Below, piece by piece: positions 9,523 through 29,641 of a stretch of DNA of 43,655 bases. The translations under genes and the position numbers were made by a program. The stretch is from the NCBI GenBank assembly GCA_029093185.1, contig GCA_029093185.1_4348.1; one strand, given 5' to 3'. Each line of letters begins with the position of its first letter. The first letter of the stretch is position 1. The stretch is from a phage. A model generated the notes under the pieces. The model made no database searches, was not told the origin of the DNA, and worked only from the letters and a program-made list of their open reading frames with translations.

Positions 9523-9556
9523 TTGCACACCCCAACATAATAGGTTACTATTCACT
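9523..9556 (+). promoter_or_regulatory. Early promoter (TTGCAC-17-TACTAT) with operator palindrome
   Basis: TTGCAC 9523-9528, 17-nt spacer, TACTAT 9546-9551; TAATAG-GTTA-CTATTC overlaps the -10. Confidence 0.55.
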
Positions 9557-12246: not shown

Positions 12247-12305
12247 TTCCTACCCGTGGTATCCTCCAGTTACTGCATACTTAATACGCACCTGGAGGAT
12301 TCATC

Positions 12306-12614
12306 TTGGATAAATTTACTGAAACTGTGACGGGGTGGCTTCTCGCTGCCGCACTAGCCGGAGGGGTAATCGGACTAAGGCAACATAAGTCCGCTATTTC
12401 CGGCCCTATCGACGGCTTCTGCTTTATTGCAACTGGCTTCACTTGCGCCGTATTTGGCGCACCTCTCGCAGCTCAATGGTTTGGAATCACGGGCGACCGT
12501 GAAATCGCAGGCCTGGGCTTCATTATCGCTATTCTCTGGATGCCTATCTATTCCCGTCTGTCCGGTATCGTCGCCGGAGAATACATCGCACGTCGAGGAG
12601 GCCCGGATGAATGA
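12306..12614 (+). CDS. Putative holin (three predicted transmembrane segments)
   Basis: 102 aa; three hydrophobic stretches and a charged C-terminus; directly upstream of the endolysin. Confidence 0.5.
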   Translation: MDKFTETVTGWLLAAALAGGVIGLRQHKSAISGPIDGFCFIATGFTCAVFGAPLAAQWFGITGDREIAGLGFIIAILWMPIYSRLSGIVAGEYIARRGGPDE

Positions 12615-12879
12615 GTTATTCTGGTTCTGCGGTATGCTGGCAATCGGAGGCACATCGCTGTTTAATGTGTATCATCCCAGCGTTGACGACGGGCTATTTG
12701 GCCGGGTGCTCTATATCCTGACTGCTATTGTCTGCGCCGCAGGATGTATCCACCTGTTACAGGGCAGCATGTCTCCGACGCTGCCTGAGACATTAATCAC
12801 ATTAGTTGCGCTGCGCCAGATTCGTCAGGCGTGGCTGTCATACGGAGGACATAAGCGTGTCTCGAAACATTTCAGATAA
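12607..12879 (+). CDS. Putative second holin/antiholin membrane protein
   Basis: ATG 12607 overlaps the upstream stop (ATGAATGA); two hydrophobic segments; in frame with the ORF-track entry 12427..12879. Confidence 0.4.
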   Translation: MNELFWFCGMLAIGGTSLFNVYHPSVDDGLFGRVLYILTAIVCAAGCIHLLQGSMSPTLPETLITLVALRQIRQAWLSYGGHKRVSKHFR

Positions 12880-13345
12880 TGGATTGCATTTTACCGCTGC
12901 ATTCGAGGGGTTCCGTGGAACTGCGTATCGTGCTACGCCGAACGAGAAGTACCTTACTATTGGCTACGGAAGCTACGGCCCTCATGTGTATGAAGGGCAG
13001 AAGATTACGAAGGGTCAGGGACTCCTGTTACTGAATCGTGATATGGCTAAGGCCGTAGCTGCGGTTGACGCAGCGGCACACCACTCCCTGACACAGGCAC
13101 AGTTCGATGCAGTGTGCGACCTGGTCTATAACGCTGGTGCTGGTGTGATTGCCGCTGCCACCGGTACGGGTAAGGCACTGCGTTCCGGTGATGTTGCGAC
13201 GCTGCGGGCTAAGCTGGCGTTGTTCATCAACCAGAACGGCAAACCATTACTCGGCCTGCGCCGCCGTACAGCTGGTCGTCTGGCGCTGTTCGACGGTAAA
13301 CCGTGGCAGGAGGCAGAGGCTATCGGGCGCGCGGTGAAAGGTTGA
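12857..13345 (+). CDS. Endolysin, lysozyme-like (GH24/T4-lysozyme-like fold)
   Basis: FEGFRGTAY...TIGYG matches the T4-lysozyme catalytic Glu and TIGIG region; GTG 12857 has a GGAGGA Shine-Dalgarno 7 nt upstream (the ORF track starts it at 12806). Confidence 0.7.
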   Translation: MSRNISDNGLHFTAAFEGFRGTAYRATPNEKYLTIGYGSYGPHVYEGQKITKGQGLLLLNRDMAKAVAAVDAAAHHSLTQAQFDAVCDLVYNAGAGVIAAATGTGKALRSGDVATLRAKLALFINQNGKPLLGLRRRTAGRLALFDGKPWQEAEAIGRAVKG

Positions 13346-13411
13346 CACTTAGGACTAATCAGACGATACTTAAGTCACCTCCTGTTCCACCCCTCTGCTC
13401 TCCAGTTTTAT

Positions 13412-13441
13412 CCCGGCCCTGACCCAGCCGGGATTTTTTTA
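13412..13441 (+). terminator. Rho-independent terminator after the lysis cassette
   Basis: CCCGGC (13412-13417) / GCCGGG (13427-13432) followed by ATTTTTTTA. Confidence 0.6.
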
Positions 13442-13462: not shown

Positions 13463-13491
13463 TTGACTATTATCTATGACCATATTATATT
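13463..13491 (+). promoter_or_regulatory. Sigma70-like promoter
   Basis: TTGACT 13463-13468, 17-nt spacer, TATATT 13486-13491; immediately downstream of the terminator. Confidence 0.5.
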
Positions 13492-18664: not shown

Positions 18665-18687
18665 AGCCCCGAAAGGGGCTTTCTTAT
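18665..18687 (+). terminator. Terminator-like hairpin after the portal gene
   Basis: AGCCCC-GAAA-GGGGCT followed by TTCTT. Confidence 0.4.
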
Positions 18688-18723: not shown

Positions 18724-19767
18724 ATGAGCTTACTTACATCCCTAATCAGCCATCAGATATGGCTGCAACGCACCGCATCCGGTGAGGTGAAAGACCTCAC
18801 GCCGTTCATTCAGGAGATAAGGGATGAAATCAAACGGCAGGTGCTGTTATTCGGTGACGACGGTCGCAGCACTGCGCGACTGAATAAACTGTTACGCGAC
18901 CTGGAAGAAGCACTAACCGGTATTACGGGTGACTGGCAAACAAAGCTAACAGACGACCTTAAGGAACTGGCGGCGTACGAGGCTGAGTGGAACGTAAAGA
19001 CACTGACCGCCAACGTAGACGCGGAATTTGTTACGCCTACCGCTGAGCAGGTATGGGCCGCTGCCGAGTTTCAACCATTATCATTGAGCGACAAGCCCGT
19101 TGATTTCACCAAGCTGATGTCTGGATGGGGCGAAACGGAAGTAGCACGTCTTGTAACTGGAGTTAAGATGGGCTTTGTGCAAGGTCAAACCACACGGCAG
19201 ATTGTTAAGAATGTTGTTGGCGCTGGTGGACTAGCCGACATCTCAGAACGTAACGCGACTACGGTAATCCGCACCGCGCTGTCCCACGTATCCAACGAGG
19301 CCCGTAACGAGACGTACCGCCAGAACGACGACATCATCGAGAAGTACGAGTGGGTGTCAACGCTTGACAGCCGCACCAGTACGATTTGCAGGGTCAGAGA
19401 CGGGATGACGTGGGAAATTGGTAAGGGGCCGATGCCCCCAGCCCATCCGAACTGCCGGTCGTGCACGGCTCCGGTAATCAGTTCCGAGTTCGACTTCCTC
19501 GATAAAGGCGCAAAACGCGCGGCTAAAGGCGCGGAAGGTGGCACTCAGGTAAGCGCAGACACCACTTACTACGAGTTCCTTAAACAACAACCGGCGTGGT
19601 TTCAGGACCAGGCGCTCGGCCCGGTGCGAGGTAAGATTTTCCGTAACAGCGGTATATCGCCGGAAGAGTTTCGCGTAATATCTGTAGATGGTTTCGGGAA
19701 TCCGCTCACGCTTAAGCAGATGGCGGAACTCGATAAACGTGTTGCTGATTATCTGAAAGGGGAATAA
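18724..19767 (+). CDS. Head morphogenesis protein (SPP1 gp7 / Mu F-like)
   Basis: 347 aa after the portal, the usual position for this family. Confidence 0.55.
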   Translation: MSLLTSLISHQIWLQRTASGEVKDLTPFIQEIRDEIKRQVLLFGDDGRSTARLNKLLRDLEEALTGITGDWQTKLTDDLKELAAYEAEWNVKTLTANVDAEFVTPTAEQVWAAAEFQPLSLSDKPVDFTKLMSGWGETEVARLVTGVKMGFVQGQTTRQIVKNVVGAGGLADISERNATTVIRTALSHVSNEARNETYRQNDDIIEKYEWVSTLDSRTSTICRVRDGMTWEIGKGPMPPAHPNCRSCTAPVISSEFDFLDKGAKRAAKGAEGGTQVSADTTYYEFLKQQPAWFQDQALGPVRGKIFRNSGISPEEFRVISVDGFGNPLTLKQMAELDKRVADYLKGE

Positions 19768-20228
19768 TGATGGGCTTTTTCAAAGTAACTGACGTACCGT
19801 CTCGTCGCGTAGTCCAGTACGCCCGCGTGTCTGGCTCTGGCGAGAACGTGGTATTTATTGAGGACGAAAGTGTACTCGGTACACCGGTAGATGATATGCC
19901 GTTTGCAGATAAAACCGGTATTGCGTTGCCCGCCGCCGGTATGCTTTATGAAATTCCGTATCTGGCGGACGCTGGCGACGTGTATTTCTCTGCGCAACCG
20001 CAGGACGCTGAACTGGCGGGCGGCAGCGCAACCATCACTGTCGAGGTTAAGGCAGGCAAAGCGCCGTATTCTCTGACCTGGTACAAAGACGGTAAGGAAG
20101 TGGTGAATGCGCCTGAGGAGGCTCTGTCTCTGACGGTTAATGCGGTCGGCGAATACTTCGTTAAAGTTACTGATGCCGATGGAGTAGAGGCGGTAAGCAA
20201 AGCGGCGAAGGTTACTAAGCCAGAATGA
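19767..20228 (+). CDS. Virion protein with C-terminal Ig-like domain
   Basis: 153 aa; YSLTWYKDGKEV...GEYFVKVTD resembles an immunoglobulin-like repeat. Confidence 0.5.
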   Translation: MMGFFKVTDVPSRRVVQYARVSGSGENVVFIEDESVLGTPVDDMPFADKTGIALPAAGMLYEIPYLADAGDVYFSAQPQDAELAGGSATITVEVKAGKAPYSLTWYKDGKEVVNAPEEALSLTVNAVGEYFVKVTDADGVEAVSKAAKVTKPE

Positions 20229-20231
20229 TAA

Positions 20232-20258
20232 AAGGCCCCATTATGGGGCCTTAGTTTT
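20232..20258. terminator. Bidirectional rho-independent terminator
   Basis: AAGGCCCC-ATTAT-GGGGCCTT flanked by a T-run on the plus strand and an A-run upstream; sits between convergent genes. Confidence 0.6.
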
Positions 20259-20461
20259 CAACGGAATCTTGTGTTTAAATCCTGCTCATGGACAACCCTC
20301 AGAACAGTGTCATAATCCCCGTATCTTCCAGGTTCAAATATATCTAATGCCTTGTAAGCAGACATTGCGTCAGGGAAAACCTGCAGAACCTTTTTAACCC
20401 GGCACAAGTCACCGTCGAACTCTTCATCGAACTCTTGAACTACTTCGCAAATTGCATACAT
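20258..20461 (-). CDS. Small acidic antisense moron protein
   Basis: 67 aa, about 14 acidic versus 8 basic residues; strong AGGAGGTG Shine-Dalgarno; own promoter and terminator. Confidence 0.6.
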   Translation of the reverse strand: MYAICEVVQEFDEEFDGDLCRVKKVLQVFPDAMSAYKALDIFEPGRYGDYDTVLRVVHEQDLNTRFR

Positions 20462-20488
20462 TTTTCACCTCCTGTTTAAGTTAACTGA

Positions 20489-20517
20489 ATAGTACCCTAT
20501 TATATTGGGGTGTGCAA
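20489..20517 (-). promoter_or_regulatory. Early-type promoter with operator palindrome driving the antisense moron
   Basis: Minus strand TTGCAC (rc of 20512-20517), 17 nt, TACTAT (rc of 20489-20494); TAATAG-GGTA-CTATTC. Confidence 0.55.
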
Positions 20518-20569
20518 ACTATTTATTTACGTATTCCAGTTATTCCTCCGAATTGTAAATGTTGGAATA

Positions 20570-20585
20570 AACTATTCGAATAGTT
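20570..20585. promoter_or_regulatory. Perfect 16-bp palindrome AACTATTCGAATAGTT
   Basis: Same half-sites (CTATTC/GAATAG) as the recurrent operator but abutting with no spacer; adjacent to a TTGACT hexamer. Confidence 0.4.
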
Positions 20586-20836
20586 GACTTTTCACTAAAA
20601 ATATGATAAGCTCCACCTGAGCTTGTGAAGTATGAACAAGCGACCGCGGCGCGGGCAGGTAACGGAGCGGGACGTAAGTCCTGAGTGTAGTTACGCTGAC
20701 GCGTTCGGAAGGGCCATACTCTATTGCTTGTGTAAAAAGTAACTGGTTTACTGAGATTACGCCGTTTCTATGTTTAAATGATAAGGACTAGCGCCCCGCT
20801 TTATGGCGGGGCTTTACTTATCGAGAAAGGGGAAAC

Positions 20837-21223
20837 ATGAATCTTAAAGCAACTGTCGTAGCAGGAGCATGTTTCATCATCCTGGTTTACGCACACGGCA
20901 TCTACCAGTATCGCAGCGGATGGAACGAAGGCCGGGCTAATCTCGTTTCGCAGCAACAGCAGAAAGCACAGGCTGAGTTAGCGAAGAAAACACAACGGCA
21001 GCAGCAGGATGAATCGAAGGCCGCCGCCGCTGACAACGAAGGCAAGACGAAATCAGAGGTGATTACCCGTGAAGTCGTTAAGTACATTAAAACGCCTGGT
21101 CGCAGCGTGTGCACTTTTGACCCTGAGCGCGTGCAGCTCAAGTCCCGCGCCGTCGCCAACGCCAATTCCATCCCCGGATACGACGATGATGCAGCCGCCG
21201 TGCAAACTGGCGCAGCCAAGTAG
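20837..21223 (+). CDS. i-spanin (Rz-like)
   Basis: 128 aa; N-terminal transmembrane segment (ATVVAGACFIILVYAHGIY) followed by a Gln/Ala-rich periplasmic region. Confidence 0.65.
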   Translation: MNLKATVVAGACFIILVYAHGIYQYRSGWNEGRANLVSQQQQKAQAELAKKTQRQQQDESKAAAADNEGKTKSEVITREVVKYIKTPGRSVCTFDPERVQLKSRAVANANSIPGYDDDAAAVQTGAAK

Positions 21224-21332
21224 CGACGCTGATGAGGATTTGGCCGTCGACGTTCAGAATGCTGAATGCGTACGGCAACTGAGACTGAAAGTGTTCATGT
21301 TGCAGGATTACGTGAGGAATATTCTGGAATAG
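21069..21332 (+). CDS. o-spanin (Rz1-like lipoprotein), overlapping the i-spanin in another frame
   Basis: 87 aa; signal peptide with lipobox LTLSAC, then a proline-rich mature region; starts inside the i-spanin gene and extends past it. Confidence 0.6.
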   Translation: MKSLSTLKRLVAACALLTLSACSSSPAPSPTPIPSPDTTMMQPPCKLAQPSSDADEDLAVDVQNAECVRQLRLKVFMLQDYVRNILE

Positions 21333-21414
21333 TTGCCTTGCATGTTGGAATAATTTATTCTTGACATGTAAATCCGGGTGGCCCGGATTCCAACGTCCAG
21401 GGGACATACTGACT

Positions 21415-22116
21415 ATGAATCGTTTTTTACGTTATCCGTTCCAGGAAGAAGCTGGAGCAGAAGATAAAGCTGGTGGCGGTGACGCTCCTAAAATGTTCAC
21501 CGCTGAAGAAGTTCAGGCGCTGATTGAGAAAGAAGTTGCCGGGCTTAAGGCTAATCAGGAAGCATTGTTGGCGGAGAAGAAAGAAGCCGCTCGCAAAGCA
21601 AAAGAGGCCGAAGAAGAACGGCAGCGCGCGCACCAGGAGGCGTTAAAAGTCGCTGGTAAGATGGATGAGTTCGAAAAGACGATTCGTAGCCAGTACGACC
21701 CTGTGTTAGCCGAGAAAGACGGTCGCATCTCCAGAATGGCAGAGCGTATCCTCGGCAGCGAACGTAAAGCGGTGCTAGGCTCTTTCGCGGGTGACTTTAT
21801 TACCCCAGAAGCAGTGGACATTCTTGCGCCGTTCGTTAAGACTGAGTTCGAAGGCGATGATGTGGTTACTAAGTTTGTTGGTGCAGACGGTAACGTAATC
21901 ACGACTGACCCGGAACAGTTCCGCAAATACCTGCGCGAACACAAGGCGTTTTCGCATTTGATCAAAGCAAATGCAGCTTCCGGCGGCGGGGCTTCCGGTA
22001 GCAAAGGCGGCGGGGCCGCACCAGCGTTTAAAGACATGAGTGAAGCAGAGCGTTTAGCCCTGTATAAATCGAACCCTGCCGAATTTGAACGGCAACTTAA
22101 AGCCCTGAGGAAATAA
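21415..22116 (+). CDS. Scaffolding protein
   Basis: Ala/Glu/Lys-rich coiled-coil sequence directly upstream of the major capsid gene; ATG 21415 with AGGGGA Shine-Dalgarno (ORF track starts at TTG 21361). Confidence 0.55.
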   Translation: MNRFLRYPFQEEAGAEDKAGGGDAPKMFTAEEVQALIEKEVAGLKANQEALLAEKKEAARKAKEAEEERQRAHQEALKVAGKMDEFEKTIRSQYDPVLAEKDGRISRMAERILGSERKAVLGSFAGDFITPEAVDILAPFVKTEFEGDDVVTKFVGADGNVITTDPEQFRKYLREHKAFSHLIKANAASGGGASGSKGGGAAPAFKDMSEAERLALYKSNPAEFERQLKALRK

Positions 22117-23183: not shown

Positions 23184-23210
23184 GAGAGGGACTTCGGTCC
23201 CTCTTTTCAT
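23184..23210 (+). terminator. Rho-independent terminator after the major capsid gene
   Basis: AGAGGGAC-TTCG-GTCCCTCT followed by TTTCATTT. Confidence 0.6.
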
Positions 23211-29584: not shown

Positions 29585-29612
29585 AATTATACCCTCAGTA
29601 AGTTACTGGTGA

Positions 29613-29641
29613 ATAGTACCCTATTATATTGGGGCGCGCAA
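29613..29641 (-). promoter_or_regulatory. Early-type promoter with operator palindrome driving the antisense moron operon
   Basis: Minus strand TTGCGC (rc of 29636-29641), 17 nt, TACTAT (rc of 29613-29618); TAATAG-GGTA-CTATTC; a 24-bp identity with the promoter at 20487-20510. Confidence 0.55.

Follow-up and report, generated by a model that had tools for sequence, protein, structure and literature searches.

The window, a stretch of 43,655 nt of phage DNA, derives from the genome of a Kagunavirus (Guernseyvirinae) coliphage. Between positions 19700 and 22200 it is 100% identical to phage vB-Eco-KMB35, and 94-99.9% identical to further phages, including Kagunavirus Golestan, fBC-Eco01 and Shashou, whose loci are annotated as spanins. 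This region contains an overlapped pair of genes, predicted to encode the inner-membrane (i-spanin) and outer-membrane (o-spanin) subunits of a spanin, set among genes for head assembly:

18724..19767, Mu-F-like head morphogenesis gene (PF04233)
19767..20228, Ig-like decoration gene, lying with the Mu-F-like gene on the 5' side of the spanin pair
20837..21223, + strand, i-spanin gene (ATG, 128 aa), an open reading frame matching phrog_2536 'Rz-like spanin' over its full length (E = 4.8e-57)
21056..21062, + strand, Shine-Dalgarno sequence of the o-spanin, GAGGTGA, 6 nt before the GTG and within the i-spanin gene, seen in the sequence
21069..21332, + strand, o-spanin gene (GTG start, 87 aa), an open reading frame matching phrog_1267 (E = 3.1e-21)
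21069..21223, + strand, dual-coding overlap of 155 nt, encoding the C-terminal 51 codons of the i-spanin and, in the +1 frame, the signal peptide and linker of the o-spanin
21415..22116, scaffold gene, on the other side of the spanin pair from the Mu-F-like and Ig-like genes

The i-spanin gene is preceded by a Shine-Dalgarno sequence (AAGGGGA, 20827-20833), and its product carries a predicted transmembrane helix at residues 5-23 (nt 20849-20905; Kyte-Doolittle 19-residue mean 1.85). A single-sequence AlphaFold2 model places a continuous helix at residues 3-63 with pLDDT 75-92; a further helix is drawn at 69-79, but residues 68-128 score below 50, so that the confident part is restricted to residues 1-63. 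For the i-spanins of the Jersey family, two helices and a beta-containing linker were predicted by Kongari et al. 2018 (PMC6139136). The periplasmic Cys92 is invariant among the relatives compared. Amino-acid identity of the i-spanin is 96.9% to K1ind2 and 63.4% to SETP3, and homologues are found in 662 phage records.

The N-terminus of the o-spanin, MKSLSTLKRLVAACALLTLSAC, displays a positive n-region, a hydrophobic h-region and a lipobox L-S-A-C with Cys22. The lipobox (nt 21123-21134) is followed by Ser at +2 and agrees with the pattern used, [ILMFTV][^REKD][GAS]C with a +2 residue other than Asp. The mature N-terminus is proline-rich and leads into a Pro/Ser-rich linker, and the C-terminal domain is strongly conserved; the gene runs 109 nt past the i-spanin stop. 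All relatives examined, among them Dhillonvirus, Hafnia TS33 and Yersinia P400, retain the lipobox, Cys45 and Cys67, the lipobox taking the forms LSAC, LASC, LSGC, LNGC, MSAC, LTSC and ITGC. The 22-residue spacing from Cys45 to Cys67 recurs in Dhillonvirus, in Hafnia TS33 and in a locus of separated architecture; the two periplasmic cysteines of the P400 o-spanin are 21 residues apart. The sequence-only reading of this DNA had proposed a lipoprotein gene starting inside the i-spanin gene in another frame; the frame proves to be +1 and the overlap 155 nt, and the lipidation signal is as that reading expected.

Nearly all Kagunavirus and Jerseyvirus loci share the overlap length of 155 nt. Diversity by codon position was calculated from 42 distinct ungapped homologous segments. 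In the part that encodes the i-spanin only, diversity at third positions of the i-frame is 0.238, against 0.111 and 0.088 at positions 1 and 2; in the part that encodes the o-spanin only, it is 0.248 in the o-frame, against 0.087 and 0.033. As judged from these patterns, both frames are under purifying selection across the 42 distinct relatives. Within the overlap itself the i-frame dominates, since the positions that vary most there are i-frame third positions (0.212).

These data bear on the question of whether the longer o-spanin is the true product. Several records annotate a 47-48-aa protein starting from an internal Met40 or Met41 (Bas74_0009; fBC-Eco01_11), and phrog_5672 is a family of 47 residues; it could thus be argued that only the i-spanin reading frame is real, the 87-codon +1 frame being a by-product, or that the product is the 47-aa form. 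The GTG start, however, has a strong Shine-Dalgarno sequence, which is kept as (G/A)AGGT(G/A)A in relatives and is annotated as a ribosome-binding site in phage Shashou. Every relative keeps the signal peptide and lipobox even where the sequence has changed, whereas the shortened product would be without any export signal; the expert-annotated Shashou record has the 87-aa form with its lipobox, and o-spanin starts are commonly mis-called (Kongari et al.). We therefore hold both possibilities to be scarcely credible and retain the 87-aa lipoprotein. In a whole-genome scan for lipoprotein signals this was the sole canonical match not lying antisense inside a large gene, and no other lipoprotein-type reading frame suited as an alternative o-spanin.

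The pair very probably represents a two-component spanin of the overlapped 'Jersey' family, common to Guernseyvirinae and Dhillonvirus, in a split layout inherited with the lineage. Members of this family include Jersey, SETP3, K1G, K1H and K1ind1-3, with the HK578/EP23-type Dhillonvirus spanins forming a shorter subfamily; characteristic of the family are an overlap of 155 bp and, in the o-spanin, constant Cys45 and Cys67 (PMC6139136). The present pair is alike in architecture, helix, lipobox, cysteines and genomic position, with no difference of substance. Published catalogues and papers on this phage group already cover the spanin pair, its overlapped architecture and how far it lies from the holin and endolysin genes; the leader RNA considered below is not described in the work on the Jersey family (PMC6139136).

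The subunits had been called Rz-like and Rz1-like. This description holds as an analogy, and is borne out by matches to PHROG 'Rz-like spanin' families, but not as membership of the lambda Rz/Rz1 sequence family: a Pfam scan of both spanins yielded nothing above cut-off, the best being DUF2514 at 16.8 bits against a threshold of 26, and the present proteins are therefore not assigned to the lambda Rz (Pfam Phage_lysis)/Rz1 family. What is shared with lambda is the predicted topology and mode of action, namely an inner-membrane subunit and an outer-membrane lipoprotein in the +1 frame, with periplasmic cysteines. In lambda the pair is embedded and forms part of the S-R-Rz/Rz1 late cassette, whereas the present pair is overlapped and stands away from the holin and endolysin genes.

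The assignment of spanin function to the family rests on topology, analogy and context, and this leaves some room for a different identity, that of a moron-type membrane protein and lipoprotein serving, for instance, in superinfection exclusion or receptor blocking in the manner of Cor or Llp. The pair does adjoin an insertion hot spot, the gap from the Ig-like gene to the leader ranging from 318 to 1112 nt and holding varied reverse-strand genes, and promoter-like and hairpin elements stand on either side of it. Unlike the neighboring morons, however, it is never absent and never moved in any relative, and the genome, which encodes holins and an endolysin and belongs to a phage of a Gram-negative host, offers no other spanin candidate. 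The overlap, the proline-rich o-spanin linker, the conserved periplasmic cysteines of both partners and the highly conserved C-terminal domains make up the published spanin signature (PMC6139136). In addition, Yersinia phage P400 has a homologous i-spanin with an overlapping lipobox reading frame directly behind the genes for an endolysin and a small membrane protein, that is, within a contiguous lysis cluster, and this neighborhood ties the family to lysis. A moron identity is accordingly very improbable, and the pair is treated as a spanin in what follows.

The holin and endolysin genes lie at a distance:

12306..12614, + strand, holin 1 (102 aa, TTG start; phrog_2359 holin, E = 1e-29)
12607..12879, + strand, holin 2 (90 aa; phrog_2508 holin, E = 7.8e-34)
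12857..13345, + strand, endolysin, a phage lysozyme (PF00959, E = 8.2e-26)
13410..13441, + strand, intrinsic-terminator-like hairpin with a 9-nt loop and a run of seven T, closing the holin/endolysin unit (fold -13.8 kcal/mol, z = -3.4)
20584..20612, + strand, predicted promoter-like element of the spanins (TTGACT, 17 nt, TAAGCT), with TG one base before the hexamer as in an extended -10

The endolysin likely starts at GTG 12857, to judge from the GGAGGA upstream of it. From its stop to the i-spanin start there are 7491 nt, a stretch with the terminase and portal genes, head genes and four or more terminator-like hairpins. The locus is thus not a contiguous lysis cassette of the lambda/P22 type, forming one late unit, as this gap and these hairpins intervene. 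The sequence-only reading had located the spanins between head morphogenesis and scaffold genes, with the holins and the lysozyme at 12306..13345, some 7.5 kb away; the coordinates agree, the Ig-like gene being an additional occupant of the head-morphogenesis side.

That reading had also termed the layout uncommon, and the comparison with relatives speaks against this. The order of head-morphogenesis, Ig-like, spanin, scaffold and capsid genes is found in all 48 related metagenomic loci, except for a few that end at a contig end, and also in Jerseyvirus and a Hafnia phage. In Dhillonvirus the split recurs, but the Ig-like gene is missing; the Dhillonvirus Envy genes for holins and endolysin (49% identity) and for spanins (42-43%) are homologues of the present ones and are likewise split. 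Across the lineage, some 6-7.7 kb separate the spanins from the holins and endolysin, which lie upstream on the same strand. Every related locus examined shows this layout, and it is in print in the genome papers on fBC-Eco01 and Golestan. As far as gene orders can tell, the split is an inherited feature of the lineage, with a fixed place in the head-gene cluster, and is not peculiar to the present genome.

There are also precedents in more distant phages. As here, spanin genes stand away from the holin and endolysin genes in T7 (18.5/18.7). T4, with its pseT.3/pseT.2 spanins, is the textbook example of such an arrangement (Kongari et al. 2018, PMC6139136). The T4 spanin genes are separated and of unrelated sequence families, whereas the present pair is overlapped; furthermore, the lysis genes of T4 are all scattered, while the holins and endolysin here stay together. 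On the general frequency of split lysis cassettes, a search of the literature returned nothing usable beyond the remark on T4 by Kongari et al.

The two loci had been said to lie in two transcriptional contexts, and they do fall into different predicted units, separated by the terminator at 13410-13441 and by a distinct, conserved promoter-like element; the promoter, terminator and operon assignments are all predictions at the level of consensus sequences. A promoter-type motif, AATAGGkTACTATT, occurs in 10 copies in the genome, where 0.13 would be expected, and three copies of this type lie upstream of the unit with the holins (at approximately 9523-9539, 10274 and 10443). The holins and endolysin would then be the last genes of a unit with this repeated promoter type, closed by the hairpin at 13410-13441; at least three more terminator-like hairpins follow before the spanins. 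The spanins would be the first genes after their own promoter-like element at 20584-20612, behind a structured leader of about 200 nt ending in a hairpin. This element is conserved in Kagunavirus, has the form TAGACT/TTGACT...TGtTACGCT in Jerseyvirus, and coincides with a homologous position at which the authors of the fBC-Eco01 report predicted a host promoter.

Downstream of the o-spanin, a second promoter-type sequence (TTGCCT at 21333, 17 nt, TATTCT at 21361) is conserved before the scaffold gene even in Hafnia TS33. A TTGACA at 21361-21366, considered as the -35 of a scaffold promoter, was rejected for want of a -10 after it. A 17-nt motif downstream of the o-spanin, which contains a palindrome, matches only itself at 3 mismatches; with two of its positions relaxed it has two perfect copies and no more, one on each side of the spanin unit, and none near the holins. 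The motif therefore lends no support to a common control of the holin/endolysin and spanin loci.

One possible explanation for the split is that it serves as an adaptive timing device, with holins and endolysin expressed early and spanins late. The two loci do belong to different predicted units with different promoter types: that of the holins follows three AATAGGkTACTATT-type copies and ends at a strong terminator, and that of the spanins has its own promoter-like element, structured leader and hairpin. Moreover, the Shine-Dalgarno sequence of holin 1 is located in the 3' arm of a hairpin at 12261-12300 (fold -18.9 kcal/mol, z = -2.7), and its sequestration, together with the TTG start, would fit a slow accumulation from an early transcript. 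Against this, RNA-seq of Kagunavirus K1B4, the only related study and a coarse one in which spanins are not reported separately, assigned the lysozyme, Mu-F and capsid genes all to a 'middle' class peaking at 30-100 min; its tables, which list host genes and co-expression pairs, gave no gene-level expression for the spanins. Spanins, in addition, act only after holin triggering, so that their time of transcription need not matter if they are present. The scattered lysis genes of T4 and T7 likewise work without any special timing role for the spanins. The claim that the split implies separate timing is therefore reduced to a conjecture, as K1B4 places the lysozyme in the same class as head genes that flank the spanins; an adaptive timing device seems to us rather unlikely, and the inherited layout is the reading we prefer.

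The region between the promoter-like element and the i-spanin contains the following elements:

20613..20836, + strand, structured untranslated leader, recognized by compensatory changes and a covariance model
20621-20641, + strand, stem I of the leader
20644-20708, + strand, long three-tier hairpin of the leader (stem II)
20793..20812, + strand, G+C-rich hairpin of the leader, GCCCCGC-UUUAU-GGCGGGGC followed by UUUACUUAU (-17.9 kcal/mol, z = -3.6)

In relatives, 94.4% of the cells at paired positions retain pairing, as compared to 25-39% when the partners are slid, and 10 of the 23 pairs are altered on both sides. When only Kagunavirus sequences were used to build a covariance model, the model still recovered the Jerseyvirus form with E of about 1e-6, one copy per genome. 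Hafnia TS33, Dhillonvirus Envy and Yersinia P400 gave no hit; the leader RNA is therefore confined to Kagunavirus and Jerseyvirus, and the position of the spanins is older. Scanning 20200-21450 on both strands against Rfam 15 at E <= 1 gave no match. GenBank relatives annotate the leader as a 36-aa hypothetical protein. As a gene this reading frame (20632..20742) was rejected: in 21 of 47 distinct leaders it is frameshifted, has lost its start or is missing altogether, yet the pairing is preserved. The leader, a conserved structured RNA currently mis-annotated as a 36-aa reading frame, may be new.

The hairpin at 20793-20812 stands 16 nt before the i-spanin Shine-Dalgarno sequence, and its stem covaries, with C-G replaced by A-U, U-A and G-C. 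Its homologue in fBC-Eco01 was predicted as a terminator; the U-tract is poor, especially in Jerseyvirus, and the hairpin is a candidate for a leaky terminator or a stabilizing structure. The predicted position of the spanins, promoter-proximal behind a short terminated leader, recalls the PR'-6S RNA-tR' arrangement, which in lambda stands ahead of the lysis genes; no Q-like antiterminator such as that of lambda was identified in the present genome. Known put RNAs are about 70 nt long and consist of two stem-loops just downstream of a promoter. The leader resembles the put RNA of HK022, a cis-acting antiterminator, in having two adjacent stem-loops soon after the predicted start and in standing upstream of a hairpin of terminator type and a long operon; its stem II is far longer, about 65 nt alone, and the resemblance is one of geometry only. 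The leader might act by antitermination of the put or lambda 6S/tR' kind, through processing by RNase III, or by gating the translation of the i-spanin. We put forward, as a tentative proposal with less than even prospects, that it is an undescribed cis-acting RNA which controls read-through into the spanin, scaffold and capsid genes and which, with the GAATA-N3-TATTC palindromes flanking the unit at 20564-20577 and 21348-21360, determines the timing of the spanins.

By analogy with lambda Rz/Rz1, the N-terminal helix of the 128-aa i-spanin would hold that protein in the inner membrane, and the 87-aa o-spanin, after export, would be lipidated at Cys22 and delivered to the outer membrane. Their C-terminal parts would bind across the periplasm, with Cys92 of the i-spanin and Cys45 and Cys67 of the o-spanin forming intermolecular disulfides. 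Once the holins (12306..12879) had released the lysozyme (12857..13345) and the murein was gone, the spanin complex would disrupt or fuse the outer membrane. As holin triggering sets the timing of lysis, the spanins need only be in place beforehand.

For this group of phages the split is ancient, being common to Guernseyvirinae and Dhillonvirus, and genome scans should not flag it as an anomaly. Many GenBank relatives carry an o-spanin cut to 47-48 aa without its lipoprotein signal, or have the i- and o-spanin labels swapped, and one PHROG family is built on the shortened o-spanin; the present sequence gives the correct 87-aa form. If the leader is a true regulator of read-through or processing, it would offer a handle on how lysis genes are coordinated over two units in widely used therapeutic phages.

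A 2.5-kb query around the spanin genes matched 483 phage records in total, with 100% identity to Escherichia phage vB-Eco-KMB35 and 94-99.9% to other coliphages, including Kagunavirus Golestan, fBC-Eco01 and Shashou and the BASEL phages Bas70-76. The annotated Bas74 genome has the gene order of the entire window, which is thus essentially a complete Kagunavirus (Guernseyvirinae) genome. Its lysis genes are as follows:

12306..12614, + strand, holin 1 (phrog_2359)
12607..12879, + strand, holin 2 (phrog_2508)
12857..13345, + strand, endolysin (PF00959 lysozyme), the most likely start being GTG 12857
20837..21223, + strand, i-spanin (ATG, 128 aa, N-terminus MNLKATVVAGACFIILVYAHGIY)
21069..21332, + strand, o-spanin (87 aa, +1 frame; GTG, the first start codon in the open frame)

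The two overlapping spanin frames proposed by the sequence-only reading were confirmed, with an overlap of 155 nt. They lie, as it had placed them, among head genes: a Mu-F-like head morphogenesis protein (PF04233) and an Ig-like Hoc-type protein are encoded upstream, and the scaffold and then the major capsid protein downstream. Shine-Dalgarno sequences precede both starts (AAGGGGA before the i-spanin ATG, GAGGTGA 6 nt 5' of the o-spanin GTG). Residues 5-23 of the i-spanin have a Kyte-Doolittle mean of 1.85, and single-sequence AlphaFold2 predicted a confident helix at residues 3-63 and little beyond. The o-spanin N-terminus, MKSLSTLKRLVAACALLTLSAC/SSSPAPSPTPIPSP, carries a textbook lipoprotein signal: a basic n-region, an uncharged h-region and a lipobox (LSAC, with Ser at +2); a proline-rich stretch comes next. 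In a genome-wide scan of the window it was the only plausible lipoprotein ORF. Both products matched PHROG 'Rz-like spanin' families (4.8e-57 for the i-spanin, 3.1e-21 for the o-spanin), and neither was assigned a Pfam family. The pair agrees exactly, in overlap length and o-spanin cysteines, with the overlapped 'Jersey' family of 27 i-spanins and o-spanins (including K1G, K1H and K1ind1-3), for which a 155-bp overlap and constant o-spanin Cys45 and Cys67 were described (Kongari et al. 2018, PMC6139136); these matches and features uphold the spanin identity. The i-spanin shares 96.9% identity with its K1ind2 counterpart, and the expert-annotated Shashou record has a 387-nt i-spanin and a 264-nt lipobox o-spanin in the same place.

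Public o-spanin annotations were often found to be wrong. In some, the protein is cut to 47-48 aa from an internal Met and hence has no signal or lipobox (Bas74_0009, locus L001 5838-5981; fBC-Eco01_11, locus L056 1546-1692), in others the i- and o-spanin labels are swapped (PVP-SE2, locus L003 2501-2996), and phrog_5672 is a 47-residue family based on the shortened form; mis-annotation of this type has been described (Kongari et al. 2018, PMC6139136). A metagenomic relative (L042 4001-4586) displays a 'separated' architecture, in which a 118-aa i-spanin and an 81-aa o-spanin (lipobox ITGC, unrelated N-terminus) overlap by only 14 nt. This difference from the overlapped form fits the contrast between Jersey and FSL SP-031 in Kongari et al. 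(PMC6139136).

Related sequences (48 IMG/VR loci and several GenBank genomes) were used to examine coding constraint, with codon-position diversity computed on 42 distinct ungapped 496-nt homologues. Outside the overlap, diversity peaked at the third codon positions of the frame in use: 0.238 vs 0.111 and 0.088 for the i-frame in the i-only part, and 0.248 vs 0.087 and 0.033 for the o-frame in the o-only part. Within the overlap the i-frame third positions were the most variable (0.212), and changes there are absorbed by the signal and linker of the o-spanin. All relatives compared retain the lipobox Cys (LSAC, LASC, LSGC, LNGC, MSAC, LTSC, ITGC), and o-spanin Cys45 and Cys67 and i-spanin Cys92 are invariant among them; the spacing of the two o-spanin cysteines is the same in Dhillonvirus and Hafnia TS33. 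Both overlapping frames are thus real genes, and the pair very probably serves this phage as its two-component spanin, taking over, on the lambda model, once the holins and endolysin have done their part.

The spanins are indeed remote from the holin and endolysin genes, by a gap of 7491 nt. The accompanying claim that such a split is uncommon did not hold: the same layout runs throughout related loci and has been published for relatives, and T4 genes are also unclustered. A tblastn search with the i-spanin returned 662 phage records. The order Mu-F, Ig-like, variable gap, spanins, scaffold, capsid was seen in all 48 IMG/VR loci (a few truncated at the contig end excepted), Shashou and PVP-SE2, and in Hafnia TS33 as far as the scaffold gene. 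The split has been set out in print for fBC-Eco01 and for Golestan, where the spanins are ORF7 and ORF8 and the holins and endolysin ORF66-68; in T4 the spanin genes lie away from t and e, and T4-like lysis genes are unclustered (Kongari et al. 2018, PMC6139136). The spanins of Dhillonvirus Envy lie directly 3' of the head morphogenesis gene, without an Ig-like gene between, and two holins and an endolysin are encoded on the same strand ~6.1 kb upstream, immediately 5' of the terminase genes. Identity to the window is 49% for the holins and endolysin and 42-43% for the spanins, so the two-locus lysis system is homologous and older than either taxon. The fixed position of the spanins in the head cluster is inherited.

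Yersinia phage vB_YenS_P400 (L006 1840-3409) encodes an i-spanin homologue of 30% identity with the ...NRTVCSFD... motif in common; an unannotated lipobox ORF (start region 3164, ...LMMSGC...) overlaps it. Downstream of a head assembly gene, the P400 spanins form a contiguous cluster with a small membrane protein and an unrelated endolysin, which they directly follow; this gene context supports the lysis role of the spanin family. The same spanin module is therefore found clustered in P400 and split in the window, and the comparison shows that the pair is a movable module.

The + strand small-gene block ending in the holins and endolysin sits downstream of a repeated promoter type. A 32-nt repeat, TTGCACACCCCAAyATAATAGGkTACTATTCA, occurs three times, at 9523-9554 (+), 20486-20517 (-) and 29610-29641 (-), and its core AATAGnnTACTATT (at 9539, 10274 and 10443, among others) has 10 genome copies vs 0.13 expected. 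A similar motif was named 'phage promoter' by the fBC-Eco01 authors, although the Bas74 record has no annotated phage RNA polymerase. The copy at 20486-20517 (-) would drive a reverse-strand 67-aa moron beside the spanins. Hairpins lie at these places:

13410-13441, terminator-like hairpin right after the endolysin, closing the block (ATCCCGGC, 9-nt loop, GCCGGGAT, T7 run; -13.8 kcal/mol)
18665-18680, hairpin after the portal gene
20232-20252, bidirectional hairpin after the Ig-like gene (-16.3 kcal/mol)
20793-20812, hairpin before the spanins (-17.9 kcal/mol)
23184-23205, strong hairpin after the capsid gene, at the end of the scaffold/capsid unit

The first was missed by a consensus scan because of its 9-nt loop; 3' of it lies a promoter-like TTGACT-17-TATATT (13463-13491). 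Given the promoter-type motifs and intervening hairpins, the two lysis loci fall in different predicted units, in keeping with the two transcriptional contexts first proposed; these unit assignments are a sequence-level inference. Separate timing of the two loci is a possible consequence. Expression data for Kagunavirus K1B4 place the lysozyme, Mu-F and capsid genes alike in the 'middle' class, the spanins not being among the genes reported. At 12261-12305, before the TTG start of holin 1, a 9-bp hairpin (UCCUCCAG...CUGGAGGA; -18.9 kcal/mol, z = -2.7) has the Shine-Dalgarno GGAGGA as its 3' arm and may throttle holin translation.

The spanin unit is flanked by the only two genome copies of a 19-nt motif, ATGTTGGAATAA(NN)TATTC, containing the palindrome GAATA-N3-TATTC (20559-20577 and 21342-21360), each adjoining promoter-like hexamers. 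Jerseyvirus keeps the palindrome of the upstream copy, and both Jerseyvirus and Hafnia TS33 conserve the downstream one; the motif is probably an operator for some regulator. The downstream copy overlaps a conserved promoter-like TTGCCT-17-TATTCT, and a hairpin ahead of the scaffold gene (ATCCGGGTGGCCCGGAT, 21372-21388) shows compensatory changes in Jerseyvirus and Hafnia. Site and hairpin together (21333-21388) resemble a promoter dedicated to scaffold and capsid and a 5' stabilising hairpin. Between the Ig-like gene and the spanin leader (20229-20560) lies an insertion hot spot, whose length varies from 318 to 1112 nt. Its cargo is differing reverse-strand genes (in the window and related loci L007, L011, L018, L028, L040 and L053): in the window it encodes a 67-aa protein, and in other phages a lipoprotein-like ORF of 114 aa, proteins of 173-179 aa or a methyltransferase-like ORF of 242 aa.

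The 300 nt 5' of the i-spanin were aligned from 49 distinct loci. The elements there are:

20584-20612, conserved promoter-like TTGACT-17-TAAGCT with an extended -10 TG
20613-20836, leader directly 5' of the i-spanin
20621-20641, stem I
20644-20708, core hairpin, followed by the hairpin at 20793-20812

A host promoter was predicted independently at the place of the promoter-like element by the fBC-Eco01 authors. A 36-aa ORF at 20632..20742, annotated as a hypothetical protein in relatives, was rejected as not conserved: it is intact in only 26 of the 47 distinct leaders and broken or absent in 21, with a frameshift, a truncation or no start in 11 leaders of the Kagunavirus type and no such ORF in 10/10 of the Jerseyvirus type.

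The window leader folds better than its shuffles (z = -2.8), and RNAalifold found compensatory changes in 9/33 pairs. For the three-tier hairpin of 65 nt at the centre (20644-20708), a covariance model trained on Kagunavirus-type sequences alone recovered the Jerseyvirus-type element full-length (E ~1e-6 to 1e-5; one copy per genome) and nothing in Hafnia TS33, Envy or P400. In the model alignment 94.4% of cells pair, vs 25-39% with slid partners, both partners have changed in 10/23 pairs, and covariation scores 0.32 vs 0.02-0.07; the alignment was fitted to the model, and this fitting works in favour of the structure. The stem of the 20793-20812 hairpin also covaries (C-G to A-U, U-A, G-C). 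The Kagunavirus-type leader is 95-100% identical in ~180 records, including Salmonella phages with i-spanins of only 67-78% identity, and the region has no Rfam match. Taken together, the comparisons mark the leader as a conserved structured RNA, its base pairs being kept rather than an ORF, and confined to Kagunavirus and Jerseyvirus.

It is plausible, at about even odds, that expression of the spanins comes from a leader-containing unit of their own. Its geometry (promoter, two adjacent stems, terminator-like hairpin, lysis genes, then head genes) recalls lambda PR'-6S-tR' and HK022 put, as a resemblance only. The spanin pair with its split layout is already known, and the leader RNA is the sole element for which we found no published description; it may serve in read-through control, as a processing element or as a small RNA.
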